From an uncultured bacterium (GTDB lineage Bacteria > AUK180), in the NCBI GenBank assembly GCA_937863565.1, contig CALMGJ010000013.1:1-64000 (forward strand): 64,000 nucleotides of DNA, in the 5' to 3' direction. The position numbers were made by a program, and so were the translations under genes. A model generated the notes under the pieces. It did not search any database, was not told the origin of the DNA, and saw only the letters and a program-made list of their open reading frames with translations. Positions 3,857 through 36,913 of the stretch are shown piece after piece. How positions within the stretch are numbered: the first letter of the stretch is position 1; each line of letters opens with the position of its first letter.

Positions 3857-5002
3857 ATTGACTATCATCATCGGCTCCAAGGGGAACCTGTATCTTGTTT
3901 TACCTGCAACGACCGAATAGATCCCTAAAAAGTATAAGAAAGCCAAGTGAAGAATTAGAAGTTCAGGTTTGCGGCAAATGAACAAGGAAAGGACCAAAGC
4001 AATAAAAAGAGGAAGATAGAATACGAAAAAAACGGCTCTTGAAAGCTCTTCCTTAAGGCCGGAATTCACGCTGAGATCCCTGTTCGGCGCAGGTTTCAGG
4101 AATTGCCAGGCCCTGCCCAGGCACAATGCTATGAAACGGCCGGGATTATTGATTATAAATTCCTTCCCGAGGTTCAGGTAGTAATCCGATCTTCCGGTCT
4201 CGGAAAGTCCTTTATACGCCTCGAGATCAAAATTATCCGGGGCCCGGTATCCTTTTCCGGGCGAAGAACCTTTATGATTCTCCCAATACAGCGTAATACC
4301 CCCCTCAGTTGACATCGGCACGAATCTTTTAAGGACTATCGTGTTCCTTATGGACCACGGCGCGAGAACTGCGAAAAAAACTGAGAGAAAGACCAGGGTT
4401 CCCTTTACGGGCTTTTTCATAATAAGTGCTTCGACGGCGATGACCCCGGGAAACAGCAGCATCATGCTCTTTACATAACAGGACAACGCGAAAAAAACAG
4501 CTGATACCGCACTATTAGATACATAGCTGCCCTGTTCGCGCTTTATAAGAAAAAAGAATCCCGCGGTGAAAAGCGCCGTGAAAAGCATTTCCGTAATGAG
4601 CGTCGAAGGATAATAAACCAAAGGAGGATATAAAACGGAAAAAAGCGCGGCCGGAAGCGCCAACTTTCCTCCTGTAAGCCTTTTTACGCTTAGAAAAACA
4701 AAGAACGAACAAAGAAGGCTCAGAAGGATCTGAAGAAAGATGAACTGTCCCTTTCGGAATGTTCCGTTCTTGATAAAAAGCGATAGCAAAAGCGGGAATA
4801 AAGGCGGACGGAAAGATCTTACTTCAAGGCCGTCCTTGTCTATTGCCGAATAAGTGCCTGTGTTGCTTATGTGTTCTGCGAACGACATGTACAAGGATGT
4901 GTCATTGTAAGTGATCCCTTTGGTCATGAAGGCATATCCCGCCCTTATGACCGATCCCAAGATAAGAATTGCAATAAAATATCTGAACTCCCTGTTCTTC
5001 AT
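3797..5002 (-). CDS. GT-C fold membrane glycosyltransferase (ArnT/PMT, GT39/83-like)
   Basis: Polytopic membrane protein; ND..Y...A, FRPPLFP, L.TE.LF, APW.IRN, RYRFPLEP motifs. Confidence 0.8.
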   Translation of the reverse strand: MKNREFRYFIAILILGSVIRAGYAFMTKGITYNDTSLYMSFAEHISNTGTYSAIDKDGLEVRSFRPPLFPLLLSLFIKNGTFRKGQFIFLQILLSLLCSFFVFLSVKRLTGGKLALPAALFSVLYPPLVYYPSTLITEMLFTALFTAGFFFLIKREQGSYVSNSAVSAVFFALSCYVKSMMLLFPGVIAVEALIMKKPVKGTLVFLSVFFAVLAPWSIRNTIVLKRFVPMSTEGGITLYWENHKGSSPGKGYRAPDNFDLEAYKGLSETGRSDYYLNLGKEFIINNPGRFIALCLGRAWQFLKPAPNRDLSVNSGLKEELSRAVFFVFYLPLFIALVLSLFICRKPELLILHLAFLYFLGIYSVVAGKTRYRFPLEPMMIVNAFVFIQMYLERRKKTARNR

Positions 5003-6742: not shown

Positions 6743-7347
6743 TTAAGATATCCTTTTATGAATCTCTCATGCCGCTTTATCTTCATCTGCTCTGATCGTA
6801 TCAGTGTTTCCACGCAGGAAACGGCGTTCTTGATCTCGTCGTTTATAACGAGATAGTCATAATATTTAATGAGCTTTATTTCCTTTTCGGCGTTCTTAAG
6901 TCTCAATGCGATGGTCTTCTCGTCATCTGTCGCCCTTTCACGAAGCCTCTTCCTGAGCACTTTAAAGCTGGGAGGCAGAATGAATACGAAGACTGCGGAG
7001 GGGAACATTTTCTTAATATTGATACCGCCTTTGATATCTATGTCCAAAAGTATGATCTTACCTTTTAACATCATATCGTTCAGGTACTTTTTCGGGGTTC
7101 CGTAAAAGTTCGAATGCACCTTTTGCCACTCGATCAGCTCTCCCCTGTCGATCATGTTACCGAATTTCCTTTCGGAGACGAAGAAATAATCCCTTCCGTT
7201 CCGTTCGTTCCCCCGGGGTTTTCTGGTGGTGGCAGAAATGGAATAGCAGAAATCGGGGTGTTTTTTCAGGATCGCGTCCCTGATAGTCGTCTTCCCTGCC
7301 CCCGAAGGCGCAGTAAGTACGACAAGGAAACCCTTGCCTTTCATCAC
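6739..7347 (-). CDS. gmk: Guanylate kinase
   Basis: APSGAGKTT, SISATTRKPR..E..GRDYFF, YGTP, FILPPS. Confidence 0.97.
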   Translation of the reverse strand: MMKGKGFLVVLTAPSGAGKTTIRDAILKKHPDFCYSISATTRKPRGNERNGRDYFFVSERKFGNMIDRGELIEWQKVHSNFYGTPKKYLNDMMLKGKIILLDIDIKGGINIKKMFPSAVFVFILPPSFKVLRKRLRERATDDEKTIALRLKNAEKEIKLIKYYDYLVINDEIKNAVSCVETLIRSEQMKIKRHERFIKGYLK

Positions 7348-8195
7348 AGGATCCTGTCCACTTCCCTATGTCTGTTAGGGATGAGCACACGGCTGCGGCA
7401 TTCCATCAATTCCCCTGCTGCCGAACAAGCTGCATTAAGGGCGCTTTCGGTCTCGCTCAGAGTTCCCGTGAATCCTGCCGATATCAGCGTTGAGCCTGTT
7501 TTATAGATACCGGTCAATTCAGTTGCTCCTTTTTTCAGTCCAGCATCGACACCACGCATCAAAGCGGCGAAAGAACGCGTTTCAAAAAAACCGATGGCGG
7601 GGCCTGCTGAAGATCTCTGGCCGTGCCCCGTTCTGATCTCAAGGCGTTTTTCGTCAATATCCTGATGCGGATTGTCTATCACGAGATGCCGGTATTTATA
7701 TGGTTCGGGAACTCCGGCTTCTGAATGTTCCACAGCGGAGCGCACCGATGCCACATCCCCTCTAACGGTAAAACTCGTTATACCGCCGCCTATCGTTATC
7801 CATGTGCGTGCCGTGACGAAGCCGCTTTTTAACGCATCATCGGCAGCAACGGCCATAGGAACGAAACCTTTCGTTTCCACTATTCCCAGGGCAGCACTCG
7901 ATTCCGGATACTCGATCTTTTCCTTTTTAATGAACCCGTACAGGTCCGGATGAGGACCTTTAATGATCGATGCGGCGTGCAGTTCCGGCAATTTCTTAAG
8001 TTCGTCCAGATTGCGTTCATAAGCATAGATAAGTTCTGCAACAGGGCCCTGGAAAACGGTGATGGCATGGCCGCCGCCGAGCAGGATGAAATGGAAGAAC
8101 TCGACATCCGATGTCTTTGGTATCCTGTCCTGTGCATCGACAAGGCCGCACATCCCTTTCGTTTCAATAAGAAGCAGTGCGTTATTTCCTGTCAT
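7344..8195 (-). CDS. Bacterial microcompartment shell protein with three tandem BMC domains
   Basis: Three ~90-aa repeats: LLLIETKG...GGG...QGPV; ALGIVETKG...AAD.ALK...GGG...RGDVASVRSAV; AIGFFETRS...VD..LK...G.....ESALNAA. Each ends in an I..PH-like motif. Confidence 0.88.
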   Translation of the reverse strand: MTGNNALLLIETKGMCGLVDAQDRIPKTSDVEFFHFILLGGGHAITVFQGPVAELIYAYERNLDELKKLPELHAASIIKGPHPDLYGFIKKEKIEYPESSAALGIVETKGFVPMAVAADDALKSGFVTARTWITIGGGITSFTVRGDVASVRSAVEHSEAGVPEPYKYRHLVIDNPHQDIDEKRLEIRTGHGQRSSAGPAIGFFETRSFAALMRGVDAGLKKGATELTGIYKTGSTLISAGFTGTLSETESALNAACSAAGELMECRSRVLIPNRHREVDRIL

Positions 8196-9975
8196 ATCCG
8201 CTCAACTCTTTAAGCTGTTCGAGATTATCCTTGATCATTTCGAAACTTTTCTGCCAGAAGGCCGTATGTCCTATATCTATGCCGCACGATTTGAGTATTT
8301 CGCGGGGTTTCTTCACGCTTCCCATCGAGAGGATCTTCTCCAGAACTGGTATGAAGCTCTTGCCCTGTTCTTTATACATACCGTATAAAGACATGGACAG
8401 AAGCTGTCCGAAACTGTAGGCGTAGCAGTAAAAAGGAGTGGAGAAGATATGACTAATGTATGCCCATTCATATTTGAACATCTCGTCCAGCAGTATCGAA
8501 TCGCCGAACTGGGAGCGGAGGTTCTTCATGTATACTTCGTTGAGTTCCTTCGATGTCGCGCCGTTCTTGACATGGCAGAAAGCCTCTTTCTCGAACTTCA
8601 CGAAGAAGGCCTGCCGCATGATCGTCGCGTATGTATCGTTCAGTGAATTGGATAGAAGCGCGATCTTCTGTTTATTCGATTTAGAGACCTTGAGGATCTC
8701 ATCGAACATGAGCATCTCGGCAAAAGTAGAGGCTGTTTCCGCGAGCGTAAGGGAGGAGTGGGAGACGACAGAAGGAAGTCGCGACGAATAGAGCGAATGC
8801 ACTCCGTGACCGAGCTCATGAGCCATAGTGAATACCGAATCCATGTCTCCCGTGAAATTTAAAAGAACATAGGGCGTTATCTTCGGGCTCAAGGTCGAGC
8901 AGAAAGCCCCCGATCTTTTACCTACTCGGGGATGTGAATCGACATGGTCCTCTTCGAATATCTTTTTTGCGAAAACATAGAATTTTTCATTGAAACTTTT
9001 GAAGATGCTGAGAACATAGGCCTTCGCATCCGTGAAATCCCATTTTTCGCCCGATTGGCCGGCGGGGGCGTTAATATCCGTACGGGATAGCTTTGGAAGT
9101 CCCAGAAGACGGGCCTTTACCCCGAAGTATTCGCGGAAAATATCCTTATTCTTGTCGCAAACATCAAGAAGCGTCTCTATCGTACCGTCATCCACATCAT
9201 TTGAAAAATTCCTTATCGAGATCGGCGAATCGAAATGTCTGAACTCGCATTTCGAATGCCAATCCATTACGACCGCGCGGTAGATAGTGAATATCTTCTC
9301 TACATTCTTCTCGCATTGCGTCAGAAGGGCCGTGTATGCAGCTTTCCTTTCCTCGGTCTTTGAACTGCGGAAATATGAGGAGAGCTCGCCGAGCGTTTTT
9401 ACCGTTTTGACCGGTTTCCCCTTTATTCTCATTTCGAAGGTCAGGCCATCGAAGATCATTCCGTACAGTTTTAGAACAGGGCCTTTCAGATTGATATCCT
9501 TTACTGTCCAGATCTTCTCTTCCTCCATTGAAAGACCGTGTTTGGACGATTCCCTTATATGTTCGAAATAGAAATGCAGTTCGGGGATATAAGCAAAAAG
9601 CCTTTTTGCATTCTTTCCGTCGAGATGTTTGAGTCCTTTTACGGCTTTGCCCTCGATCCATAATTTTATCGTAAGCTCGATATCGGCATATTGCTTGGCG
9701 ATATCGGACGATCTGGAAGCATAGTAGGCGGATTCGCTCGCAGAGACATTCACGGCCTGAAATAAAGAGGCAAAACCTATCACGCGGCTCACCTGATGCT
9801 CGAGCTCAAGGTATTTTCTGACGAACTCCTTGAACTCCTTTTCACGGATAGAAGGTTTAAGCGACATAAGAGTGCTTTTGAACGCTTCTATCCTCGAGCA
9901 TGTTCTTTTGTATTCTTTCTCGAAATCGTTCTTCCTTATAAGAGAATCAAGGTCCCAGAGATTTTCCTGCTTCAT
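8182..9975 (-). CDS. pepF: M3B-family oligoendopeptidase F
   Basis: WDL start, GKRSGAFC, TMAHELGHGVH zinc motif, LAETASTFAE, HIF.TPFYCYAYSFG. ATG 9975 follows a GAGGTG RBS. Confidence 0.92.
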   Translation of the reverse strand: MKQENLWDLDSLIRKNDFEKEYKRTCSRIEAFKSTLMSLKPSIREKEFKEFVRKYLELEHQVSRVIGFASLFQAVNVSASESAYYASRSSDIAKQYADIELTIKLWIEGKAVKGLKHLDGKNAKRLFAYIPELHFYFEHIRESSKHGLSMEEEKIWTVKDINLKGPVLKLYGMIFDGLTFEMRIKGKPVKTVKTLGELSSYFRSSKTEERKAAYTALLTQCEKNVEKIFTIYRAVVMDWHSKCEFRHFDSPISIRNFSNDVDDGTIETLLDVCDKNKDIFREYFGVKARLLGLPKLSRTDINAPAGQSGEKWDFTDAKAYVLSIFKSFNEKFYVFAKKIFEEDHVDSHPRVGKRSGAFCSTLSPKITPYVLLNFTGDMDSVFTMAHELGHGVHSLYSSRLPSVVSHSSLTLAETASTFAEMLMFDEILKVSKSNKQKIALLSNSLNDTYATIMRQAFFVKFEKEAFCHVKNGATSKELNEVYMKNLRSQFGDSILLDEMFKYEWAYISHIFSTPFYCYAYSFGQLLSMSLYGMYKEQGKSFIPVLEKILSMGSVKKPREILKSCGIDIGHTAFWQKSFEMIKDNLEQLKELSGYDRK

Positions 9976-12323: not shown

Positions 12324-13691
12324 TCACTGCTCCAGGATTATCTTGAAATCCGTGCGGTCCTCTTCACTACGGGCTTCTATTCTCCCTCCGTGGAGTTCCG
12401 CGATCTTCTTGCTTATGGCAAGTCCCAGGCCGAATCCTTTTGTATCCGTCGTATAGAAGGGATCGAAGATCCTCCCGATATTGCCGCTTATTTTGATGCC
12501 GTTATTGGATATCTCTATAATGATGCGTCCGCCTTTCCGGTAGGCGGAGATGTTAACAATGCCTTTTTTTCCTTTCAAAGCAATCGCTTTCGATGCATTT
12601 TCGCAGATGTTCATAACGATCACTTTGAAAAGCGCCTCATCTATATCAGCGTAGATCACGGGGTCTTTGAAGCTGAAGTTCAGCTCATTATCCTGCCCGA
12701 TGGCGTTCTCGATCACATCTCTCATATTGAGGAGCATCTGTTTGATATCAGTTCTCTGCCTGTTCAGAGATATATCCCTTGAGAAGTTCAGCATTTTATC
12801 CACAAGATTCGAAAGCCGTTCCGTCTCCTGGATGATATAATCGAGCAGTTTCAGATTCTCCTCAAGGTCCTCATATTCCCTGATCGTAGAAGCCGAAGCC
12901 TTTATCGTACCCAATGGATTCCGCAGCTCGTGCGCGATCATGGAGGAGAACTCTCCCATCGTCGAGAGAATGCTGTTTTTCAGGATCTCGTTCTTCAGGA
13001 AACGCTCCTTTGTAAGGTCCTTCATGAAAATATAGTAGAAACCCCTCTCGTATTTGAGTTCTATATTGTAGTTCCTTCCGTTGAAGATCACATTATCATA
13101 GAACCTTTTCTGGTCCTCTTTTATCTTACCGAGATCGTTAATGATCTCCTCGGAAACTTCCGGTATCTTATGCATGAGGGTTTCAAGTCCGCCTTTCAGG
13201 TCGGGATCGTTCGAATATACGATCTGTCTTCTGCTGTCGCTGATGACGAGTATCCCGCTCAAATATTCCTCGTATTTATCAGGCAGCGCCTTTGGGGCCG
13301 TCAGCTCCGCGAAAATGAACAGGAAACCTCCGGTAACGACCATGTGCAAAAGAAACATGAGCGGGAACAGAGGATATCCCGGATCATAATAGATAATGGC
13401 CTGTTTAATATTGACAATATCTCCCTTGTTGAGGGAGAAGATCTTTTTCTTCGAAGAAGGCCGGCCTGCGGTCTTAAGAGGCCCCTGTTCGAAGATATCG
13501 TGTATCTCGAAACCCGTGACCGGAGGATACTTCTCTATTTGTATCGAATCGTAGTCGCCATTTCTGATCTCTTTGAGCATTTTATTGATATTCCCGTTGC
13601 GAATGACCGTTCTTACGGATAGGACGGATATCGAGAAGATCAAACCGGCGCAGGCAGAAAGGACGATCAATGCAGCAATACGTTTTTTCAT
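12324..13691 (-). CDS. Membrane sensor histidine kinase
   Basis: Two TM helices; H-box IAHELRNPL, N-box NICENA, F-box IFDPFYTT, G-box GFGLGL. Start placed at ATG 13691 (ATGA overlap with the asnB stop). Confidence 0.92.
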   Translation of the reverse strand: MKKRIAALIVLSACAGLIFSISVLSVRTVIRNGNINKMLKEIRNGDYDSIQIEKYPPVTGFEIHDIFEQGPLKTAGRPSSKKKIFSLNKGDIVNIKQAIIYYDPGYPLFPLMFLLHMVVTGGFLFIFAELTAPKALPDKYEEYLSGILVISDSRRQIVYSNDPDLKGGLETLMHKIPEVSEEIINDLGKIKEDQKRFYDNVIFNGRNYNIELKYERGFYYIFMKDLTKERFLKNEILKNSILSTMGEFSSMIAHELRNPLGTIKASASTIREYEDLEENLKLLDYIIQETERLSNLVDKMLNFSRDISLNRQRTDIKQMLLNMRDVIENAIGQDNELNFSFKDPVIYADIDEALFKVIVMNICENASKAIALKGKKGIVNISAYRKGGRIIIEISNNGIKISGNIGRIFDPFYTTDTKGFGLGLAISKKIAELHGGRIEARSEEDRTDFKIILEQ

Positions 13692-15538
13692 AATCCGTTC
13701 TTTTGCCCCCAGAGAAAGAAAACATAAAGAGCCCATATAAGCCTGGAATTATCCTTTGCTCTGGCCTTGTGTTCATTAAGAAGGCGGTCGATGCCTTCTC
13801 TGTTCACAAACGCAGCGGCAGTACCTGAATTCATGAAAAACGCCCTCATATGACCGTACAGCTCCTTCTCCATCCATAATGCGAGAGGCAGCGAAAAACC
13901 TTTTTTTGTTTTATTGATGATGCTTGCGGGAAGCCTGCCCGAGGCGATCTTTTTCAGGATCTTCTTCGTTTTAAAAAGATCTGCCTTTAAAGAGCCGCCT
14001 AAGGAGAACATATATGAAGCAAGTTCTTTATCCAGAAACGGCATCCTCCCCTCGATCGAATTCAGCATCGAAGCCCTGTCTATCTTCACGAGAAGGTCAT
14101 CGGGGAGATATAAAGTGCGGTCAAGGAACATGGCCTTATTGAGCGTAGAGGATATGTCCCCTTCCGATGAAGGTATATTGTACATGTTCCGAAGTGATGT
14201 AACGGGTTCAATTCCCGGGAAGATCTCCCTTACTTGAGACGGGGAGAAAAAGCCTTTCCATAGAAGGTGGCTTAAAAGTACATCGTTGCCCGAGGCCTCC
14301 GAGAATTTCTTGATCTTATAGCTCATCGACAGGGTCCTGTTCTGCACCTTAATGCTCCGGGCAAAGATATCGATAACGCTTCTGAAGAAAGGCGGCATCC
14401 GGGAAAGGTAATGGTTCAAAGCTGTTGCCGTATACGTATGATAGCCTCCGAATGTTTCATCACCGCCTTCCCCGGAAAGCAGCACTTTCACTTTGCCGCT
14501 CGTGAATTTTGTTATCAGATACACATTAAGGAAGGCAGAGTCCGCAAAGGGTTCGTCAAAACCGTCGAAATTCCTGATCGTATCGAGGATGTCTCCCGAT
14601 GTGATCTCTATCCTTTCGTTCTTCAGCCCCAATAAAGCGGCAACTCGCGCCGCATCTCCGCTCTCGTTGAACCCCTTTTCCGGAAAAGCCACGGTGTAAG
14701 TGGTCATGTCCGTTCCCATTTCCTTTACGTAATAAGCTATTATTGATGAATCGAGGCCGCCGGAAAGTAGAAGTCCGAGCGGTGCATCCGAAATAAGTCT
14801 TTTCCGTACCGACTCCCTCATGAGTTCATCTATCCTGGCAAGATCGCAGCGTTTGGCCGATCCGCATTCGATGTTCCAGAATGTCTCCCTTTTCGATTCA
14901 CGGCCGTTTTTAAAAACCGCATAGGTGGCAGGAGGGATCTTTTTGATTTCTTTGAAGATCGAACGTTCTCCCGCTATATATCCAAGTGCAAGATAGCTGC
15001 TGAACGATCTCTCATCGAAAGAGAATTGGCCGGGATATTTTTTTAACGCCCTGAGCTCGGATGCGAAAATGAGTTTCCCTTTATCCTCGTAATAATATAA
15101 TGGCCTGATCCCGTTATGGTCGCGGGCGAGGATAAGGGACTTGGATTTCCCGATCCAGAGTGCGATTGCGAATTGCCCGTCCAGAAGCTCGAACATACTC
15201 CCTTCGAACTCCTCCCACATGTGAGGAATGATCTCCGTATCGCAGCTGGTTCTGAAAATATGTCCCTTTCCGATCAGATACTCCCTCAAGGTCCTGTAGT
15301 TGTAGATCTCTCCGTTAAAGACGCACGCGATATCCCCTGTCTCATTGTAGAAAGGCTGATTCCCTCCTTCGATATCTATGATGGAAAGACGCACATTGCC
15401 GAGTGTTACCTCATCATCCTCATGCACGCCTGTGCCATCCGGACCGCGATAACGGATCTCCTCGAGCATCGCTCTGGCGATCTTTCCTCTTTCATTTTTC
15501 TTAAGTCCCGGTTCCCAGATCCCGGCTATTCCACACAT
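13688..15538 (-). CDS. asnB: Asparagine synthase (glutamine-hydrolysing) family amidotransferase
   Basis: MCGIAG N-terminus, RGPD, RLSIID, NGEIYN, LSGGLDSS, SGEGGDE, DRASM..SIE.R.PFLD, KKGF. Confidence 0.92.
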   Translation of the reverse strand: MCGIAGIWEPGLKKNERGKIARAMLEEIRYRGPDGTGVHEDDEVTLGNVRLSIIDIEGGNQPFYNETGDIACVFNGEIYNYRTLREYLIGKGHIFRTSCDTEIIPHMWEEFEGSMFELLDGQFAIALWIGKSKSLILARDHNGIRPLYYYEDKGKLIFASELRALKKYPGQFSFDERSFSSYLALGYIAGERSIFKEIKKIPPATYAVFKNGRESKRETFWNIECGSAKRCDLARIDELMRESVRKRLISDAPLGLLLSGGLDSSIIAYYVKEMGTDMTTYTVAFPEKGFNESGDAARVAALLGLKNERIEITSGDILDTIRNFDGFDEPFADSAFLNVYLITKFTSGKVKVLLSGEGGDETFGGYHTYTATALNHYLSRMPPFFRSVIDIFARSIKVQNRTLSMSYKIKKFSEASGNDVLLSHLLWKGFFSPSQVREIFPGIEPVTSLRNMYNIPSSEGDISSTLNKAMFLDRTLYLPDDLLVKIDRASMLNSIEGRMPFLDKELASYMFSLGGSLKADLFKTKKILKKIASGRLPASIINKTKKGFSLPLALWMEKELYGHMRAFFMNSGTAAAFVNREGIDRLLNEHKARAKDNSRLIWALYVFFLWGQKNGL

Positions 15539-15539
15539 A

Positions 15540-15570
15540 AATAAGGTACCTGGTCTTTACATTTTACGGA
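15540..15570 (-). repeat. 31-bp repeat copy A (inverted relative to B and C)
   Basis: Reverse complement is TCCGTAAAATGTAAAGACCAGGTACCTTATT, one mismatch to copy B; contains the transposase stop codon. Confidence 0.95.
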
Positions 15571-16501
15571 ATTCAGCACGATCGATCCTCTCTAATCTTT
15601 TGAAGAAAGCATTGTCCTTCTTCATTGAGAAACGTAGTCTGAAGAGTCTTTGGCCCACTGCGTTCGCTGAGCTCAGACCAAGCTTTTCAGCCATCTGCTG
15701 TTGCGTCAGATCACAATACTTGCTCATAAAATAGACCGCAATATCCTTGAAACGGTCTTCTTTTTTAAATTTCTGCATGATCCGCCATATCTTTTCATTT
15801 CTGGTATCTATGATTTTCATCTTTTTACCTAGGGCAGTTTCAGGAAGCGCACCGGATTTCGATGTATGTTTTTCCCTCATGCATTCCGTCCATTTAGATG
15901 ACCCTAACAGATACTTGTACGTTTGAAGCTCGAAGTATGGCAGTCGGTGTTCCGTGTCAAGCCATTCTACGATCTTCGCAGGTGTGGAGATACCCACCCT
16001 TTCCTTTACGCCTTTCCAGTATATCAGGTCTTTTATCTTATTTTTCAATGCCCCGTCGCATTTACCTGAAAGGTATCTCCAGATACCTCCGGGATATGAT
16101 GCAACGCTTTCCGATATTCCTCCTCGAACCGCATTTTTGTTAACATAGCTGAACACATTAAGGAAATATTTTTCCTGTTCGATCAGTATGGCCTTGTATC
16201 TTGCTCGGAACACGGCACCTTCTCTTCTAATGGCTTTGTTGAAAGTCCTGGCCAGCTCACGGTTCAAATAGAGCATGCCGCGGCTTAAATTGGGAAGAGG
16301 CGTTTCGATGAGGATGTGATAGTGGTTTCTCATCAATATAAAAGCATAGATGCGGAACCCGTATTTTATCCTTACAGCATCAAGAAGACCTACGAAAGCG
16401 CTGAAGTTCCTCGGTGTTTTATACAGCCATAAAAGTCCCGTCCCGCGGCTTATTACATGATAGAAAGCGCCGGGATATTCTATTCTAAGAGGTCTTGTCA
16501 T
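15557..16501 (-). CDS. REP-associated tyrosine transposase-like protein (Y1_Tnp/HUH) with C-terminal HTH
   Basis: MTRPLRIEYPGAFYHVISRG start, LMRNHYHILIET (HUH), VFRARYK..LIE, Y...NAVR.G catalytic Tyr region, C-terminal LTQQQMAEKLG HTH. Confidence 0.9.
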   Translation of the reverse strand: MTRPLRIEYPGAFYHVISRGTGLLWLYKTPRNFSAFVGLLDAVRIKYGFRIYAFILMRNHYHILIETPLPNLSRGMLYLNRELARTFNKAIRREGAVFRARYKAILIEQEKYFLNVFSYVNKNAVRGGISESVASYPGGIWRYLSGKCDGALKNKIKDLIYWKGVKERVGISTPAKIVEWLDTEHRLPYFELQTYKYLLGSSKWTECMREKHTSKSGALPETALGKKMKIIDTRNEKIWRIMQKFKKEDRFKDIAVYFMSKYCDLTQQQMAEKLGLSSANAVGQRLFRLRFSMKKDNAFFKRLERIDRAEFRKM

Positions 16502-16506
16502 ATTTT

Positions 16507-16535
16507 ATTATATTCTTTTTTCCGTAAAAAGTAAA
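16507..16535 (-). promoter_or_regulatory. Putative transposase promoter TTTACT-17-TATAAT, with the -35 box inside repeat B
   Basis: -35 at 16535-16530, -10 at 16512-16507, ATG 5 nt downstream. Confidence 0.55.
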
Positions 16536-16552
16536 GACCAGGTACCTTATTG
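16521..16552 (+). repeat. 31-bp repeat copy B
   Basis: TCCGTAAAAAGTAAAGACCAGGTACCTTATTG; overlaps the TAA stop of ORF 16547-17227. Confidence 0.95.
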
Positions 16553-17227
16553 TACGATTTCCGATAATCGTTTTATGAACTCATCGAATTCCTTATCTGA
16601 AAAGGCATCGTTCACGATCCGTATTCTGGGCCCCCGAAAGAAAGTGATTCCCGGAACAGGCTTCAATGCTTCTCCGCCTATCATTATATTGACTACTTGC
16701 CTTGAGAGTTTTCTGAACCGGTCTATGCTCCTGATACTTTCAAGAGGGATCCTGCTCACATAGGATCCATGCCCTCTGTAAATATCCAAGGTTTTATCCG
16801 TGAGCTCCAATTTTCTGATCCCTCTTTTAAGCCATATGAAAAAGTCGGCCGTGAAGTAGATAGCAAGACAGAGCACGACCGTTACGAAGACAGCAGGGCC
16901 GAGAAAAATGGAGCATACTCCTCCGATTACGCTGCCTCCGATGAAACCTCCCACATTGACCCATATCAGGGAGGATCTCGATGCCGATATAGAAAATACC
17001 CTGTTCTCTATAAGTCCGTTTGCACGCAGGAATGCGGGATAATCTTCCGCTTCACCCTGAAGCACCTCGAAATCGTTTCTCGGATACCGTTCTTCTATTT
17101 TAGACAGAACCGCTTTGGAAAGGATCTCCATTTGAGAACGGACATCCCCGCTCAGATCGGCGTTGTCGATCTCATTCTTATCAATGATATTGCCGCTTTT
17201 TCTATCTTTCACAACGATGAAATACAT
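16547..17227 (-). CDS. Hypothetical membrane protein (soluble N-terminus, two TM helices, possible PH-like C-terminal domain)
   Basis: 226-aa ORF with GGAGA RBS; lies between direct repeats B and C. Confidence 0.7.
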   Translation of the reverse strand: MYFIVVKDRKSGNIIDKNEIDNADLSGDVRSQMEILSKAVLSKIEERYPRNDFEVLQGEAEDYPAFLRANGLIENRVFSISASRSSLIWVNVGGFIGGSVIGGVCSIFLGPAVFVTVVLCLAIYFTADFFIWLKRGIRKLELTDKTLDIYRGHGSYVSRIPLESIRSIDRFRKLSRQVVNIMIGGEALKPVPGITFFRGPRIRIVNDAFSDKEFDEFIKRLSEIVQ

Positions 17228-17290
17228 ATTCTCCCCCTTTTCAAATCAGGATCATGATTTACACTATTACACGACTTCTTAAGATCACGC

Positions 17291-17321
17291 CCGTAAAAAG
17301 TAAAGACCAGGTACCTTATTG
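17291..17321 (+). repeat. 31-bp repeat copy C
   Basis: Identical to 16522-16552; overlaps the TAA stop of the ychF-like gene. Confidence 0.95.
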
Positions 17322-18299
17322 GAATTTGACGACCATGATATCGCCGTCCTTCATCCGGTATTCCTTCCCTTCAAGACGGAAGCAGTTGTTCTTCTTGGCC
17401 TCATGCTCCCCTCCGAACGCTATAACATCGGATGCGTTCACAACATCAGCCTTGATGAAACCCTTCATGATATCCGTATGGATAACGCCGGCTGCCTCGA
17501 CTGCTGTCTGGCCATTTCTCAGCTGCCATGCCCTGATCTCTTTTTCCGAACATGAAAAGAACGTTATCAGATGCATGTAAGAATACAGCTCCGCCGTGAA
17601 TTTCTTAAAAAAAGGCGTTTCGATGCCCATGAGTGAAAGATATTCCTTCTTCTCCTCCTCAGGAAGAAGGGAGATCTCAAGTTCGACCTTGCCGAGAATA
17701 TCAAAAACGGGAAAACCCCGTATATCCCTAAGTCCGCTCCCGGAACTGCCCTCAGCACCGTTCACGATGCAGAATACAGGTTTTGTCAAGAATAGCTGAA
17801 ACCCTTTCAGTATCCTGTATCTCTCTTCGGCGGCAGTTTCTTTGTATAGCGATCTTTCCGGGGCATACGATTCGAGAAGGGAGGCGATCGTCCGGGCTTC
17901 ATTGTCATGCTCAGATTCCTTCTTCCCCTTGGTAAGTACGCCATGCCTCTTTTGGAGTATCGTGATATCGTTGAGGTACATGTCCTCAAAAACGGAACCG
18001 ATCTCTTTCCCGGGCTCGCTCCCTTCATTGAATCCGTCGGTTACAATGATATAACCGTCCATCTCCTTGACCTCACGGTCGGTCAGGTCATAACCCGGGA
18101 AATCATAGAAAACGAAAGTATTGTAGATCTTTTTTTTCGTATTGTAGAGAACGGCGAGCTTCTCCACTCGATCATCGTGAACGTCAACTGTAGTGAAGAA
18201 TACTTTTTTCTCGAAATCCTGCGAAGTGTCTCTTCCGCAGAGTGCACCGTATATCACCGATTTCCCCGAGCCTTTTCTCCCTATTATCCCTATCTTCAT
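17316..18299 (-). CDS. YchF/OLA1-like P-loop NTPase with TGS (DUF933) domain, divergent
   Basis: GIIGRKGSGKS, V.V.DDRVEKL, DFPG, LITFF, AVEAAGVIHTD..KGFIKA, GKEY.MKDGDI. Confidence 0.85.
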   Translation of the reverse strand: MKIGIIGRKGSGKSVIYGALCGRDTSQDFEKKVFFTTVDVHDDRVEKLAVLYNTKKKIYNTFVFYDFPGYDLTDREVKEMDGYIIVTDGFNEGSEPGKEIGSVFEDMYLNDITILQKRHGVLTKGKKESEHDNEARTIASLLESYAPERSLYKETAAEERYRILKGFQLFLTKPVFCIVNGAEGSSGSGLRDIRGFPVFDILGKVELEISLLPEEEKKEYLSLMGIETPFFKKFTAELYSYMHLITFFSCSEKEIRAWQLRNGQTAVEAAGVIHTDIMKGFIKADVVNASDVIAFGGEHEAKKNNCFRLEGKEYRMKDGDIMVVKFQ

Positions 18300-28666: not shown

Positions 28667-31600
28667 CTACTTGATCACAGCGAGCTTCTTGAACGTTTCC
28701 TCCCCTGCCGCATCCTTGACAACGATAATGTAAATACCGGAAGCCACACTTTCGAGATCGTCATTCTTCACATCCCATCTTGCCAATCCGCCTTCATATG
28801 CGAGCCCGGAATAATCTGAATGGAGAAGGACTGATTGATCTTCAGTCGACGGAAGGTATTCTAAGGCAAGTCCCGTGCCTTCATTCCAATCGGCTACAAG
28901 TTCGCCGGCGATATTGTATATCGAGATCCTCTCTACAGAATCGGAAAGCCTGTCGATCATTATACCGCCCGAAGCGGATCCCGTACCCGAGTTACCGTCA
29001 GAAGGCCGGTACGGATTGGGAACTATCCTGAACTCGCCGCTTTTAGCCGGAGCTTTCTTCAGCATGAAGATCCCGTAGGTCGAGAAATGATCAGTTTGTA
29101 TCGTTATCGATCCGCCGTTATTAATTGCGCCGCCCGTGATCACTTTCCCGCCGATCTGTTCCCAGGCTCCGTTATTGTAATACCAGATCTTCAGGTTCTC
29201 CTCATCCGCGGTCGAATTTACGCCATTGCCCGAATTATCCACAGCAGCGGTATAATTGATCGTCATCGTAACGGGTTTTTCAAACGTGATGCCGCCGCCG
29301 TCGGCATAGAATTCCCTTACTTCTCCCATCGAGATAAGATTGCTGCCGTTGGAATCCGAAGGCGGATCGGTGATAGGTGCATTTATCGTGATCTCCACAT
29401 CAGACGCCAGCGCGCCCTCCGGTACATCAACATATGTGCCGGAATTATCATGGAGGATGCCGCCAATGCCTGAAACCGATCCTCCAACCTGAACAGAAAG
29501 GAGTGACAGCGCATATGTGTCCGAAGAAATGCCGTGCGTCATAGAAACATACGACATTTTATCCCCGCCCGAGGGGGCGAGTACGGCAAAAGCCTCATTG
29601 AACGGATTATTTGCGATGAGCGCAGCAGGAGTATTAGTGAATGTACCCGTTACATTCCTCATAAAGATATCAAAATTGGTATCTGCAAGTACAATGTCCG
29701 GCGCGGATACCCATAGAAGCGCATTATCGAAGCGGGATGCGGCATCCTCTATATAAGAGATCACATCTCCGTTTATCGTCCATGAAGGGCACCAGGACGG
29801 AAGGTTCGTACCGGTCACTGCGACAAGGTCGGATGATGACCACGAAACGACCGGGGTTCCCGAGGCGAGAACGGCCTGCACATCGGCAAGGATATAGATA
29901 TCGCTTCTGTTCGATGCCGGATAATCACGGACAAAGGTTATTTTTGTTCCGTCCGGAGACCATTTGGGCTGGAGGAGTTTATCCCGGAGCGACGTACTTT
30001 CGTTCGTATCCGTATAAAGGGAGAAATCTGTCAAAGCCTTCGTCCCTTTGTCCGGCGCGGTGCTGTACGGATCGAAGACCCACAGATCGCCGTCTATGGA
30101 TACCGCAATGGAGTCACCTCTATCTGGCGTTCCCGGATTGAAATCGTACCAGTCCGGATCGAGCCAGTTGCCCCAATCGGTCGTCGAGACGGGGGAGATC
30201 CTCGTCCGTCCCGGTCTGGAACCGTCGGAAGGCTCCGTAAAGATGTGTGACCTTCCGAAGCCGTCAATGGCAGCAAAAGCAATGAGCGTACTGTCGGGAG
30301 ACCACGTGAACTGTGAAAGATAAGTAACAAGGTCGGCGTTCAGCGTCACTGAAACGGGCACGGCCGAAGTGTCCGTTCCCGAGATCACGTAGATATTGGA
30401 TTCCGTTGAAGACGTACCCTTCATAAAAGCGATCCTGGGAGTTACCTCTTTGGACCATACCGAATACAGCAACCAATCTCCCGCTCCGTTGAATGTCGCA
30501 TTGGAATAATCGCCTTTGGCGTAGACAGCGAGGTCCACTTTGGATTTCACGGGAAGAGTGAAATAGTAGTCCTGAGGGTTAGGCGATATGAGGTTGCCGC
30601 CGCCTAAAGCTTCATAATTATCCCTTTGCGAATATATCCTTATGAAAAAAGGCGCTCCGGGCGTCAGCCGTGACGCGGTAAAATCAAGTTTATCCGTTCT
30701 TTCATCGGAAAGAAGAGTTGCCCTGTTCGGATAATTGTTCAGTGCACCGTTCAAGCGGAAAAGTGTCAGCGTCTCGGCTGCCGTTTCATACATATCCTCG
30801 TTCCATTTGATGTATATCTCGGCCGTATTTCCGGTGGAATCCCACTGTATCCAGTAATCCTCGACCCGGGGCCTTACATAATCGCCGGGTTTTGCCGTGG
30901 CCGTATCGGATTTCACGCTCGAGACGGACCTGGAGTCGACGGCCTCTACGGCATAATAATAAGGGACATTGTATTCCAGCGCGCTGTCCGTATCGTAGTA
31001 TGTCGTATAAGGATGGAGCGATTTCAATAAAGTCCAGTCACCGGACCCTCCTCCGCCGCCGTCAGGCGGGCACGTTATGGAGAAATCGTCTATGTGCATC
31101 CTTTCGGCATATGTCGTCGTTACTCTTACTTTGATATTATCGCTCGTATTATTCAAAGCGTATGACCATTGCTGGTATGTCGTGTTCGCGCATGCGACCG
31201 TTGCGATATCTACGTATGCCCCGCCATCCACGCTGTAGGATACTGTAAAATTGAATGATGGATTACCGTCCCAGCTTCTGTACCAGAACGATATCGTCCC
31301 TACCCCTCCGTCCTTGCCGTTGCCGTCGGCGCCTATATATTCCAGGCTCGGCTGAGGCGTTGCGTTCCTCAGTCTGACATCGCTCGGTGAAGAATACGGA
31401 TAGGTAGTATCCCTCAATCCATTCGTTATCTGGAAGCCGTTATACGTGTAATCGCCGTATGCTGTCGCACCCGTCCAGCCATCGAAGTTCTCGAACACTT
31501 CCGTGCAGTCCCCTCCTCCCCCTCCTCCGTCAGAAGGATTGGAGGAAGTAGATCTGTAGATATTGTATCCCTTTACGGTAAGGCCGTGCTCTTCCCCGTC

Positions 31601-34600
31601 CCCATAATGCGAAGGCGCCGTCCAGTTAAGGTATATGCTCTTATCAAGTCCGGTGTTCGAAGCGAGCAAAGCCGTCGGGGAATCGGGCAGAGTGTCCGTG
31701 TCGAAAGTGCTTGCCGCCGGGCTTCCCGTCTGATTGTAAAGAGCGTTTCCCCAGATGTACTTGTAGTTCTGGAAGAAGATATTGGCAAGGTTCGCGTCGT
31801 GGATGACGACCATGTTCTCGTCATTCTGATTATGTGTGCCGTCTGTCCATTCAGTGGAGGATGAATCCGCTGCGGCGGACCAGTTCGGGGAACCCGTGAT
31901 CACGGTGGGATCGGAAGCGGGATATTCGGGATCGATGACCATGTATTTATTGTGGCAATAGTAGGTCCCTCCGCCGTTATCCACGGCCACGTTCATACCG
32001 TAGTTCTGGCAATCGTAATACCTCCCTGTCGTCCAGCTGCTCGAGGAGAACACTCCCTCGATATACACTCCCCTGTCATATGCATCCTGCAAGTGATACA
32101 TTGTTGTGTAATCGGTAAACGACGAGATCGCCAGATATATGGTATGATCGGCATTTGCGATCTGATCGCCGATGATATCCGACATGTCGTTAAAGCCCAG
32201 CATATAGGCCTCGATATTGTTCTCCCCTCCGCCGATCGAATGATAGTTCACTCCTCCCGGTGCGGGGTCGTAATACGGGCTTTGTAGAGCGCCCATATAG
32301 AGGTTCGGCGATTTACACCAGCCGTCCCCCGAATACCCGAGGTCCCACATAAGATGATGCTGATTATAATACTGCTTTGCGATGTCGGGATGCCTGAAGT
32401 ATATCTGATTCTGCATCTGCTGCGCGGTGCCGGTCGAGGACCAGTTCCAGGAACCCGTGCAGACAAGGTCGCCGACCGTTGAGGAACCGTAGTATCCCAC
32501 GTCAAGAACATAGAACTTGTTGTGGGATGCGCAGAAATCTCCCCCCATGTTCGAGGAGCCGTCGCAACCGTTGCTGTAATCGTTCCTGCAGTTGTTCACG
32601 CCGAAATTCGACCTTATACCCCAGCTCGTATTGCCGGAGGTCCCTCCCTCATGCCATAGGCGCTTCACGCTCCCGGCAAAGCCGGAAACGGCATTATCGA
32701 TGGTCGTTCCCGCCGTTTGGTCCACATAGGCCGTGGCATAGAGATTATACCGGCCCTGCGTTATCAGATATGCAAGTACATCATCAAGGTTGGAATCGCA
32801 GAAATGCTTTCCTGCCGAATAGATGCCGGACATATCCCCGGTCCCCGTCCAGGCCCCGCCATAGGCCTTGAGCCAGGCCGTCCGCCCGTAACTCGCATCA
32901 AGAGGTTCCGTGAAATACGCATGGAACCACGGTATTGCCGTCATGCCGACAGTCACCGGCGATCCCGTACATGCCGTATAATCAGGATTCAATTCAGTTT
33001 TCGTTTGGACAATAAAACCGTTCTCGGCAACATTGTCTGATGATATGAGATCGTAGAAGATGAATGCCACCGTTTCTCCGGGAGCGAGCGTATTGGACAG
33101 ATCGACATATGTCTGGTTAAAATCGCAGTAAATATCCCAATCCTCGTACTCGGGGAGTTTTTTTACGGATACCGTGGAGTTCGAGATGCCGGACCATCCG
33201 GAAGGCAGATAGACCCTTATCCCGGTAAGAGCATCCTTGAGCGAGGCCACATCGATCGAAATATAATTACCGATAGAATCGGCCAAGATGGGGTTCGCCG
33301 GCCCGTCGCCCGAACCTCTTGCGGTATAAAGGGATGCTTCACCGCCTGCCGAATATATCGTAAGCAAGGCCCGAGGGAATTTTATGATCGAGTATGAGTC
33401 GAAATTCGGCGGATTGACGCCGTCCGTCGGCGAATTGCCGTCGGTATATATCTTGAATTCGTATTCGCCGGAAGCGGGAGCCGTTGCAAGCTCAAAGGTG
33501 ATATTAATGTCGGCATTGGAGGAAGTAAGGACGGGAGTTCCGTCGATCTTGTAGAATATCACCCTGTTGTCACGCGTGGCCTGAGCGCAGCCGGCGTCAT
33601 TCTCGAACATCGTGGCCAAAAGTTTTCCCCCATTGGCCGCGATCCACGCAGGAGGCACCTCGATCTGGATCTCGCTGATATCCGAGGCTTCTTTCGTAAT
33701 GAGGAAAGTGAACTCGTTCCCTTCGGTGTTCTCGATGATATAATTCGAACTTTTAGTGAAAGTGGTCAGAACGCCTGTGCCGTACGGGCCGCACTTGATA
33801 GGAACGGTATTGGAGAAAAGCGAAGAAAGATCCCCGTCGTCAACTGTCTTCAGAGCATAATAATACAGCGTGCCGATGCCGATCCCGGACAATGAAGCCG
33901 TATCGCCCGATGTCGTACCGATAAGGACCGCTCCGGACATATCAGAGTTCACGCTCTGATAGATATCGTAATGGTCCGGAATATTGCAGCCGGTCGGCGC
34001 TGCCGTGAACGCGAGGTAGATGCTGCCCGAGCTTCCCACATCGTACCCCGAAAGAGCGGACGCTGCGGAAGGGATCGTTCCGTTCGTTCCCGAAGCACAT
34101 CCCGGAGATGCCGGGTCGGAGATCGCAAAATCGGAAGAAGGATCGTCGGTATCCACCCATACGGGAGATCTCACAAGGGTCTGCCCCGATGCGGTGACGC
34201 CCGGGTGAGGGATGTGGCCGTGCATCGCGTTCTGGCCGTAATTCATGAAGTCCACTATCCTGTCGCTCCCGTCAAGGATCAGCACTTCGTCTCCGAAATC
34301 GGCCGAATTGCCCAAAGAGACGAAATTGTAACCTTGAACGGTCCATGTATTGTATTGGATCATATTGGGAACGGCGGGATCATCCTCGCCGTGCACTTGG
34401 GAAGCATCGGACCAGCAGAACTCGTAATTCGGTTTGAAGCCGTAAAGGTCCTCGAAATGGTAGGAATAATTGGCGATCACCTGAGTCTGTCCCGCTGCGA
34501 TCGTTGCGCCGACGGGGAACTGGTACATTCCTTCCTTGTAGGAAGTGTCCATCTTCCTTTCTTCATCCCCTATCTTGTAATTCGTAAGCGTTATGGAAGA

Positions 34601-36802: not shown

Positions 36803-36913
36803 CTGGCACCTCATTACATTATTTTTTAAAAAGTGTGCAATTTTCATACCTGGTTATAAATATTGATATATTGGAATATAAGCGAGATGAATTTTCCAAA
36901 TTATTGGAATTTT

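Follow-up and report, generated by a model that had tools for sequence, protein, structure and literature searches.

A probable TIRtron in an uncultured bacterium: a single-copy RAYT-like transposase gene between cognate terminal inverted repeats

The transposase locus described here lies in the window, a 64-kb stretch of DNA from an uncultured bacterium, and is likely to be a TIRtron: a single-copy, RAYT-like Y1/HUH transposase (TIRYT, TnpAY1 subclass 2.1) situated between cognate terminal inverted repeats (TIRs) of about 27-30 bp. A first-pass annotation had flagged the arrangement as an undescribed system. It already has a name: the TIRYT/TIRtron class was named in 2013 (Di Nocera, De Gregorio & Rocco 2013; PMC3733652) and equated with subclass 2.1 of TnpAY1 in 2018 (Quentin et al. 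2018; PMC6006769), and the match to these published classes makes the TIR-flanked locus one of a known kind. The assignment to subclass 2.1 is a putative one, made from domain architecture and homologues. The locus is a further example of a mechanistically unstudied kind. TIRYTs are widespread, as a pattern scan of public genomes yielded at least 579 confirmed relatives, and the literature searched, in which the term TIRYT is itself rarely used, contained neither tests of mechanism nor biochemical work on any TIRYT.

Results

Anatomy of the locus

The features of the locus are collected in Table 1. A degenerate, W-containing 30-mer matched the window three times, at 15540-15569 (-), 16522-16551 (+) and 17291-17320 (+), with 0 mismatches each, and gave no chance match in 100 dinucleotide-preserving shuffles. 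When extended by one base, the first two copies become 31-mers (15540-15570 (-) and 16521-16551 (+)) with a single A/T difference; these are the inverted repeats with one mismatch that had been reported on both sides of the transposase. The third, direct and exact copy was likewise found where it had been described, 16522-16552 being repeated at 17291-17321, and a single ORF (ORF226) does lie between the two direct copies. The junctions of the three copies are taken from a draft assembly of 38 contigs.

Table 1. Positions of features at the TIRYT locus and its flanks
Feature	Position in window	Strand	Description
asparagine synthase (asnB-like)	13688..15538	-	flanking gene
TIR1	15540..15570	-	downstream (gene 3') arm; outer AAGGTACC box toward asnB
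TIRYT gene, 314 aa	15557..16501	-	N-terminal Y1/HUH domain, C-terminal helix-turn-helix
sigma-70-like promoter match	16507..16535	-	-35 TTTACT inside TIR2, 17-nt spacer, -10 TATAAT; consensus match only
TIR2	16521..16551	+	upstream arm, inverted relative to TIR1
ORF226	16547..17227	-	no Pfam/NCBIfam family; possible passenger or mere neighbouring gene
TIR3	17290..17321	+	orientation as TIR2, inverted relative to TIR1
ychF-like GTPase	17316..18299	-	flanking core gene, outside element

In each TIR of the window, the outer box is followed by GGTC and then by tandem heptamers, TTTACNT TTTTACG. The repeats are closely fitted to the ends of genes. The transposase stop codon (15557-15559) falls within TIR1, the outer box of TIR2 holds the ORF226 TAA stop (16547-16549), and that of TIR3 holds the stop of the ychF-like gene (17316-17318). 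TIR1 is separated by 1 nt from the asnB ATG (15536-15538). The asnB-like gene begins 18 nt past the transposase stop, so that the two genes are probably transcribed together. The -10 element of the promoter match ends 5 nt from the transposase ATG. A similar promoter layout was seen by eye in many homologue loci.

We inspected the repeat for a GTAG or CGTC tag and the ends of the unit for a direct target duplication; neither was seen in the sequence. The sole dyad is AGGTACCT, as the first-pass annotation had stated. Folding of six 41-nt repeat strands as ssDNA gave minimum free energies of 0 to -2.4 kcal/mol (z 0.0 to +1.3 relative to shuffles), and a hairpin or REP reading of the repeat was rejected because no strand folded better than its shuffles.

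The transposase

The 314-aa protein matched Pfam Y1_Tnp at 26.2 bits (cutoff 23), with H60-Y61-H62 as the HUH motif and Y119 as the predicted catalytic tyrosine. Across 39 aligned homologues HUH, Y119, N123 and R126 were invariant or almost so, and HUH and the catalytic tyrosine were invariant in all 39. An AlphaFold model (pLDDT 87) had as its best PDB match the E. coli TnpA-REP bound to a REP hairpin (4er8; E 2.9e-6, TM 0.71 on target), followed by the IS200, IS608 and ISDra2 transposases. A phmmer search of PDB sequences with the full-length protein returned matches at chance level only.

A helix-turn-helix (HTH) of DnaA domain IV type was placed at about residues 250-300. A profile built from the C-terminal 119 residues matched DnaA domain IV (2hcb/1l8q) at E 3e-14, and 24 of 39 family members individually matched Pfam Bac_DnaA_C. 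The window protein by itself gave no Bac_DnaA_C match and only a weak one to Sigma70_r4_2 (E 2e-4 to 1e-3); Foldseek ranked DnaA first for the domain, at a weak E of 0.12-0.57. Judged by these profiles, the C-terminal domain is DnaA-domain-IV-like at the level of the family.

A single copy of the gene is present in the 2.27-Mb assembly, together with two paralogues at 30% identity, which have their own TIR families of about 9 and about 13 copies. Three TIRYT genes thus coexist in the genome, each associated with a small TIR family of its own.

A single-copy gene with a DnaA-type C-terminal domain, which in DnaA binds duplex DNA, might also be a domesticated regulator that no longer moves DNA and uses the TIRs as operators or portable -35s to control its own gene and those nearby. 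The best promoter match does have its -35 inside TIR2; the consensus TTGACA-type heptamers resemble -35 boxes, and in many loci -10-like hexamers were seen by eye 16-18 nt further on. We nevertheless consider such a role improbable. An HUH motif and tyrosine invariant in every aligned homologue would be superfluous for a pure regulator, and congeneric genomes differ in which whole units they carry. The solo copies, moreover, lie downstream of genes and, judged by eye, have no suitably spaced -10 of good quality. The idea that solo TIRs serve as portable promoters was rejected for the same reason, a good -10 at 17 nt being found solely for the copy upstream of the transposase (the flanks of the others were judged by eye).

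Cognate repeats at homologous loci

Under the TIRtron reading, the TIRs should belong to the transposase next to them, and the homologous loci agree with this. Among orthologues at 39-47% identity, cognate inverted repeats flanked the gene at 4 of 6 loci, and the other 2 loci were truncated by contig ends. These repeats were 26-31 nt long, 97-100% complementary and 946-1033 nt apart, with clade-specific sequences, so that repeat and protein co-vary. Flanking inverted repeats with a score of at least 14 were present at 41 of 47 more distant, full-length homologue loci from public genomes; when the right-hand windows were shuffled, 20 times for each of the 47 loci, the top score was 13.

In an alignment of 41 rows of arms, the window TIR aligned column for column with the consensus GGGGTCAGgtCTTgAcAtgtGAc. 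Relatives mostly have GGGGTCAG as the outer box, followed by GGTC and the tandem heptamers TTGACAN TTGACA, and the window's AAGGTACC aligned at the position of GGGGTCAG. At most homologue loci, as at the present one, the final 13-25 nt of the gene lie within the downstream arm. The recurrence of cognate repeats at orthologue and homologue loci, and the separate families of the paralogues, make it very probable that the 31-mer is the cis site of the HUH enzyme encoded beside it. This part of the first-pass interpretation is supported; the integron-like use that it proposed for the site is not, for reasons given below.

Relation to known systems

Di Nocera, De Gregorio & Rocco (2013; PMC3733652) describe TIRYTs/TIRtrons as RAYT-like Y1 transposases with long TIRs that form moderately abundant dispersed families, the TIR belonging to a dispersed repeat family for some TIRYT members. 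The locus resembles that description in having a Y1 gene within long non-REP TIRs, at similar arm distances and with a downstream arm that overlaps the 3' end of the gene. It also resembles it in a TIR family dispersed as singles, dimers and clusters, and in the presence of several TIRYT genes with different TIRs in one genome, three in this case. According to the same source, a GGGGWSAS motif is common to most, not all, published TIRs; the locus differs in that its box is AAGGTACC, although this aligns at the GGGGWSAS position. Its host also differs, being of an unclassified lineage with few relatives.

According to Quentin et al. (2018; PMC6006769), subclass 2.1 consists of long Y1 proteins with a C-terminal HTH of Bac_DnaA_C, HTH_23 or HTH_28 type and without REP hairpins. 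The family of the window protein likewise has a Bac_DnaA_C-type C-terminal HTH and no REP hairpins. Automatic and manual searches described there gave no REP-like repeats near subclass 2.1 genes, whereas flanking repeats are plain here and at 41 of the 47 homologue loci.

REP/RAYT systems (REPtrons, REPINs) share with the locus a single-copy HUH/Y1 gene, a short inverted repeat dispersed between genes and mostly 3' of them, the occurrence of gene-less inverted doublets, and the TnpA-REP fold that gave the top structural match. Unlike REPs, the window repeat is non-palindromic, lacks the GTAG/CGTC tag and exists in about 12 copies rather than the hundreds that are typical. The protein carries an additional, predicted DNA-binding domain, and it scores below the cutoff of the NCBIfam RAYT model (REP_Tyr_transpos equivalog; 51.5 bits, cutoff 80).

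Elements of the IS200/IS605 family have subterminal hairpins, lack TIRs and occur in several identical copies. IS608 and ISDra2 share the Y1_Tnp fold with the window protein, including HUH and a predicted catalytic tyrosine, but the window unit has terminal inverted repeats in place of subterminal hairpins, a single-copy gene and no tnpB.

Genome-wide repeat family and stop-codon placement

The repeat is not unique to the locus, in keeping with the expectation of the first-pass annotation that it would recur in the genome and in relatives. There are 10 intact and 2-3 decayed copies in the genome, and nhmmer found 10 copies at E <= 7e-7 and 3 weaker ones. A 17-mer core was present in 5 of 61 genomes (G000, 10 copies; G001, 7; G004, 3; G006, 20; G007, 1), and the reversed pattern, used as a control, gave 0 matches in those five. 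Of these, G001, G004 and G006 are three related genomes. In a metagenome scan an 18-mer core was found at 15 loci, none of which had the heptamers, resembled this genome or carried a TIRYT. The third copy in the window is one of about 12 members of a TIR family that the enzyme presumably maintains in the genome, and TIR3 is most simply explained as another member that has settled at a stop codon.

For 7 of 8 TIR copies the distance to a stop codon is 0-9 nt, a number reached in 0 of 1,000,000 simulations. REPs, too, reportedly lie close to stop codons. The genes that precede TIRs are mostly lineage-specific. A simple TIRtron model leaves unexplained both this adjacency and the strong placement at stop codons. 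Genes directly followed by a TIR lacked a Pfam match (E <= 0.001) in 5 of 7 cases, compared with 6 of 20 controls (one-sided Fisher p 0.07); with the curated cutoff, 6 of 7 such genes lacked a match (p 0.016).

These features bear on the proposal, made in the first-pass annotation, that direct TIRs serve as integron-like recombination sites at which the HUH enzyme excises circles of a gene plus a TIR and re-inserts them at resident TIRs. Like attC sites, the TIRs adjoin stop codons, lying just past or overlapping the stops of single genes and at times in same-oriented rows, and the excess of TIR-followed genes without a Pfam match would suit cassettes. In two cases in the genome, direct copies tightly bracket a single gene: one is ORF226, the other an ORF of 132 aa at C20:2480-2878 (gaps 1 and 29 nt). 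On contig C7 of G006, a region absent from G004 has five copies in one orientation, with 1-2 genes between successive copies.

We regard integron-like capture as highly improbable all the same. Such bracketing is trivial if every copy settles past a stop codon in a row of co-directional genes, and the core gene ychF is among the TIR-followed genes. The hot spot on C7 of G006 also varies in G001, where it lacks a TIR. We found no excision product and, in the genomes compared, no empty sites or alternative cassette orders. At orthologous ychF loci, where varying cassettes had been anticipated, panC directly follows ychF in 5 of 5 family relatives, with no repeat, transposase or ORF226 between them. 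The window site has no attC-like fold and no platform, the adjacent enzyme is of HUH/Y1 type and not an IntI tyrosine recombinase, and the clearest presence/absence events concern gene-less doublets and the transposase unit.

An excision footprint was also sought as the palindrome AAGGTACCTT, formed from joined outer boxes. This 10-mer was found just twice in the genome, a count unremarkable relative to the 1024 palindromic 10-mers and to those of equal composition, and the footprint was rejected.

Presence and absence of TIR-bounded units

TIR-rich regions are variable within genus g2. An IR-gene-IR unit on contig C14 of G006, one of two such units in that genome, is missing from G004, which has 113 nt of unrelated sequence at the same site. 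G006 and G001 share an inverted doublet of 110 nt, in place of which G004 has 14 nt. Against the TIRtron reading, G004 has 3 TIR copies and no close orthologue of the transposase (best E 1.4e-21).

A unit of about 1 kb in the form IR-gene-IR, with two examples in G006 and an equivalent missing from an orthologous site, could be taken for an ordinary autonomous insertion sequence, with the remaining TIRs as solo ends of decayed elements. This is very unlikely, given that one gene is accompanied by 10 intact, highly conserved repeat copies, that the ends show no direct target duplication, and that each paralogue is again single-copy with a repeat family of its own.

Under the TIRtron reading, we infer that the enzyme binds, nicks and moves its repeats as follows. 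The HTH domain would bind the tandem heptamers in duplex DNA, and the HUH/Tyr119 domain would nick and reseal a single strand at the outer border of the box. The DNA that moves or disappears would be units between two TIRs with their boxes outward, that is, the gene itself and the gene-less doublets of about 110 nt, and new TIR copies would land in A-rich sequence at ORF ends. The heptamer of the upstream arm may also supply the -35 for transcription of the transposase, in which case binding would autoregulate the gene. With three TIRYTs, TIRs with a clear box and heptamers, presence/absence of units and strong stop-codon placement, the genome offers a compact test case.

ORF226 and the ychF junction

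A broader version of this mechanism would treat TIRs as interchangeable ends, so that the TIRYT moves any DNA between outward boxes, genes included, and delivers it exactly at ORF boundaries. At this locus the mobile unit would be 15540-17321, with TIR1 and TIR3 as its ends, TIR2 as an inner alternative end and ORF226 as cargo picked up through the outer end. If true, a single-copy 'domesticated' HUH transposase would drive accessory-gene flux in the lineage, a gene-shuffling role that would be new for RAYT-type enzymes. We consider both the general idea and its local form unlikely.

Several observations are compatible with nested ends. TIR1 and TIR3 are inverted with their boxes outward and abut ORF boundaries exactly, at the asnB ATG on one side and the ychF stop on the other. 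Synteny with all 5 relatives stops at the ychF stop and TIR3. ORF226, a possible passenger between nested ends, begins 63 nt from TIR3 and has no homologue in the 5 relatives; a search of a 5.8-billion-protein collection yielded ORF226 itself only. A second unit of the same geometry (TIR, DEAD-box helicase, TIR) lies elsewhere in this genome, at C14:77279-79062. In G006 a TIR and a 282-aa DUF4349 gene follow the helicase stop, and G001 and G004 have other DNA there. These three (ORF226, the helicase unit and the TIR with the DUF4349 gene) are the candidate cargo. At 5 of 5 further TIR sites in G006, homology with G001 and G004 ends at the TIR.

Against this, neither the 1.78-kb unit nor ORF226 has a second copy in the 2.27-Mb assembly, and synteny of the helicase gene is conserved within genus g2. 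Repeats accumulate in variable intergenic spots anyway; the spot on C7 of G006 is also variable in G001, where it has no TIR. A simple insertion would leave panC after the unit; asnB is found there, so at least one further rearrangement is required.

An inversion between TIRs was rejected as the cause of the break between ychF and panC, since the nearest TIR of the same family is about 2.9 kb from panC on contig C29 and none adjoins it. For asnB, the lone clear orthologue (in G003, 48%) begins at a contig end. ORF226 itself has hydrophobic segments in its central part, as judged by eye.

Repeat copies around the transposase gene

A degenerate 30-mer occurred three times in the 64-kb window and not once in 100 shuffles, which bears out the inverted 31-bp pair and third direct copy described in the first-pass annotation. 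When one base longer, the inverted pair TIR1/TIR2 consisted of 31-mers with a single A/T difference, and TIR3 was an exact 31-nt duplicate of TIR2. TIR1 contains the transposase stop codon, the ORF226 stop codon falls within the outer end of TIR2, and that of the ychF-like gene within the outer end of TIR3; the ATG of asnB is 1 nt away from TIR1. These junctions are known from a 38-contig draft assembly alone. By ssDNA folding, no TIR copy in the window was better than shuffled sequence.

Repeat copies and associated features. G000 is the window's own genome; G001, G006 and G008 are relatives; C, contig; L, individual locus compared
Feature	Location	Strand	Details
TIR1 (left copy)	window 15540-15569	-	30-mer pattern match
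TIR2 (middle copy)	window 16522-16551	+	30-mer pattern match
TIR3 (right copy)	window 17291-17320	+	30-mer pattern match
Transposase gene, 314 aa	window 15557-16501	-	between inverted TIR1/TIR2
ORF226	window 16547-17227	-	between direct copies TIR2/TIR3
Second TIRtron	G000 C30:61591-62536		Y1 gene, 288 aa; own inverted repeat AGGGACGATGGTTGACATTGTTGACAAA
Third TIRtron	G000 C29:77332-78274		Y1 gene, 284 aa; own inverted repeat AAAGAGGGACGTTGGTTGAAAAAGGTGAAATTTT
TIR-helicase-TIR unit	G000 C14:77279-79062		inverted TIRs, boxes outward
Orthologue inverted repeat	G006:C14		AAAAGTAAAAAGTAAAGACCAGGTACC
Orthologue inverted repeat	G001:C145, G006:C168		ATGTAAGATGTAAAGACCCGGTACCT
Orthologue inverted repeat	G008:C330		CATGTCATATGTCATGGGCCGGCACCTT
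Duplicated outer box	G000 C20:2464-2490; G006:C14, C168, C2; L106, L108, L128, L141, L178		

The transposase and its published class

Pfam Y1_Tnp matched the window protein with 26.2 bits (cutoff 23) and NCBIfam REP_Tyr_transpos with 51.5 bits, under its cutoff of 80. H60-Y61-H62 (HUH), Y119 and N123 were invariant in an alignment of 39 homologues, and R126 nearly so. The structure closest to the AlphaFold model (pLDDT 87) was E. coli TnpA-REP on a REP hairpin (4er8; E 2.9e-6, TM 0.71 on target, rmsd 2.5 A), followed by the IS200, IS608 and ISDra2 transposases. A profile from the C-terminal 119 residues matched DnaA domain IV (E 3e-14), and Pfam Bac_DnaA_C was matched individually by 24/39 family members; the window protein by itself gave only a weak Sigma70_r4_2 match. 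Foldseek ranked DnaA chains at the top for the C-terminal model, with weak E values. The gene is single-copy in its genome; its two paralogues there, 30% identical, are on other contigs.

RAYT-like genes with flanking long TIRs unrelated to GTAG REPs have been named TIRYTs, and the units TIRtrons (Di Nocera et al. 2013, PMC3733652). The accessible text of that paper describes a GGGGWSAS motif common to most of the published TIRs, "moderately abundant families of TIRs" found singly, as dimers or in clusters, and some genomes holding several TIRYT genes with differing TIRs. Twenty of 26 TIRYTs were assigned to TnpAY1 subclass 2.1, long proteins with a C-terminal domain like Bac_DnaA_C, HTH_23 or HTH_28 (Quentin et al. 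2018, PMC6006769), and the usual RAYT gene is described as single-copy, the 16-mers that flank it being over-represented (Bertels et al. 2017, PMC5581495). As the TIRtron/TIRYT class is already in print (PMC3733652, PMC6006769), the window locus belongs to a known kind, and the earlier suggestion of an undescribed system gives way to an arrangement named in 2013 (PMC3733652). Its one formal deviation from the TIRtrons described in the accessible text is the outer box, AAGGTACC rather than GGGGWSAS. We identify the locus, with good confidence, as a TIRtron whose enzyme has the TIR as its site. The accessible portions of PMC3733652 and PMC6006769, the sole users of the term in the literature searched, report no biochemistry on TIRYTs.

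Conservation of the arrangement

Among 61 genomes, close orthologues (39-47% identity) were confined to G001, G006 (two), G007 and G008 (two); the relatives are few, and through their kinship counts across them are mutually dependent. Four of the six loci had inverted repeats of 26-31 nt, perfect or nearly so, spaced 946-1033 nt, the remaining two being truncated by contig ends. The TIR sequences varied by clade, and the plan was common to all. A pattern scan of public genomes yielded at least 579 confirmed relatives of the window protein in many phyla. A flanking inverted repeat with a score of at least 14 was present at 41 of 47 full-length homologue loci with enough flank, the top score over all 47 being 13 when right-hand windows were shuffled 20 times per locus. 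The downstream arm overlaps the gene's final 13-25 nt in most of those loci, as in the window, and the window TIR AAGGTACCTGGTCTTTACTTTTTAC aligns with the upstream-arm consensus GGGGTCAGgtCTTgAcAtgtGAc position by position. The C30 and C29 TIRtrons have their own dispersed repeat families, of about 9 and 13 copies, respectively. Judged from these comparisons, the TIR sequence co-varies with the transposase protein and the arrangement is conserved.

In many unrelated family members the outer box is repeated in tandem, two or three times and at a period of 11-13 nt, which may be the mark of a cleavage or joining site. G002:C172 holds a Y1 paralogue distantly related to the window protein (30% identity; L072:3630-4049); it has the orf123 and ychF orthologues on either side and is one gene off the window's position.

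In the mechanism that we propose, the DnaA-type HTH would bind tandem heptamers in duplex DNA, the HUH/Tyr119 domain would cut and rejoin a single strand at the box's outer edge, and the mobile unit would be the DNA between two ends with boxes outward. A promoter match (TTTACT, 17-nt spacer, TATAAT; 10/12 positions) ends 5 nt before the ATG, and by eye the layout is alike in many homologue loci. The upstream arm's heptamer may double as the -35 of this transposase promoter, and binding would therefore autoregulate. Our confidence in the individual steps is much lower than in the TIRtron identity.

A dispersed repeat family

A search of the genome and its relatives, suggested by the first-pass annotation, recovered further copies of the repeat. 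The 25-nt core GTAAAAWRTAAAGACCAGGTACCTT had 12 matches (up to 5 mismatches) in the 2.27-Mb, 38-contig assembly, and an nhmmer profile gave 10 copies at E <= 7e-7 plus three decayed ones (E 0.009-0.8). A 17-mer core (up to 1 mismatch) was present in 5 of the 61 genomes, with 10 copies in G000, 7 in G001, 3 in G004, 20 in G006 and 1 in G007; the reversed pattern was found 0 times in those five and once in one other genome.

One TIR variant in genus g2 (relatives including G001, G004 and G006), CTAAAAAATAAAGACCAGGTACCTT, makes up one end of a larger repeat, about 170 nt in length, which is present in duplicate in G006:C7 (L085:1500-1765; L077:7177-7404, 9106-9261). Repeats of about 270 and 200 nt, unrelated to the TIR family, occur in dozens of copies in G001 and G004; those at L080:2400-3000 and 4500-4770 (G006:C156) had 60 and 70 matches. 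The 18-mer core of the TIR is also part of a repeat of about 40 nt, GGGGGAAAAG..GTTTGTAAAGACCAGGTACCTTCT, that is unrelated to the family (L216, L218, L223). One metagenomic genome has three or more copies of this repeat, two of them in inverted orientation about 2.2 kb from each other; L216 and L218 lie on one 2.27-Mb metagenome contig. No TIRYT was found near the repeat in the stretches inspected of these three loci.

One unit in G000 holds a DEAD-box helicase gene (446 aa, C14:77624-78964) in the same TIR geometry as the transposase. The helicase is 70-71% identical to its genus-g2 orthologues, compared with 30-57% for five genes near ychF. A TIR and a DUF4349 gene follow the helicase stop codon in G006; G001 and G004 are without both. 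A nested-end passenger model is the main rival worth testing, and we regard it as unlikely.

ORF226 as a possible cassette

The row amidohydrolase-orf133-orf123-ychF was kept in all five family relatives examined, and in all five panC (Pantoate_ligase, E 8e-94) starts 13-17 nt past ychF, with the repeat, transposase and ORF226 absent downstream of ychF. Synteny therefore stops exactly at the ychF stop codon, the place of TIR3. Simple insertion is not the whole story, because the unit is followed by asnB and not by panC, which in G000 is located on contig C29. The relatives compared here are all outside the host genus, so there is no empty site for the window locus. ORF226 matched no Pfam or NCBIfam family and had no homologue in the five relatives; in a 5.8-billion-protein collection it matched only itself.

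The first-pass annotation proposed integron-like capture or excision here, with two direct copies of the repeat bracketing a single gene. Tight bracketing does recur once in G000, around a 132-aa ORF (C20:2480-2878; gaps of 1 and 29 nt), and a stretch of G006:C7 that is absent from G004 has five same-oriented TIR copies interspersed with genes, one or two at a time. However, bracketing is automatic if each TIR copy directly follows a stop codon in a co-directional gene row, and the G006:C7 hot spot holds different DNA in G001 too, without a TIR there. The clearest cases of presence versus absence involve no gene: where G006 and G001 have a 110-nt inverted doublet, G004 has 14 nt. In G004 an unrelated 113 nt takes the place of the IR-transposase-IR unit of G006:C14. 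We consider the integron-like cassette model very improbable.

Placement at stop codons

Eight TIR copies have the outer box toward a gene's 3' end, and seven of these lie at -2 to 9 nt from the stop codon, with 30-334 nt to the following gene; uniform placement within the same spacers reached 7/8 in 0 of 1,000,000 simulations. The habit recurs at several sites in the other two TIR families of G000. Two copies are instead only a few nt away from a start codon, at asnB in the window and at a conserved gene of G006:C103 whose native upstream region, found in G001 and G004, was replaced. At five of five further G006 sites, homology to G001/G004 breaks at the TIR, on one or other side.

Genes preceding TIRs were without a Pfam match (E<=0.001) in 5/7 cases, compared to 6/20 controls, which were window genes of similar size (one-sided Fisher p 0.07); with curated Pfam cutoffs 6/7 were without a match (p 0.016). 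One of the control genes (window 7344-8195, -) encodes 283 aa with three domains of the BMC (bacterial microcompartment shell) type; the window also has an ORF of 2726 aa (28667-36847, -). Homologues of TIR-preceding genes were found in 0/5, 0/6, 0/6, 0/6, 1/6 and 1/6 (weak) family relatives, and in 5/5 for ychF, the sole comparator. The simple TIRtron model does not account for the placement at stop codons or for the unusual preceding genes. A 142-aa membrane ORF precedes the TIR at G000 C9:140981; its sole family homologue (G004:C34:140420-140833, 51% identity) contains an internal TAA.
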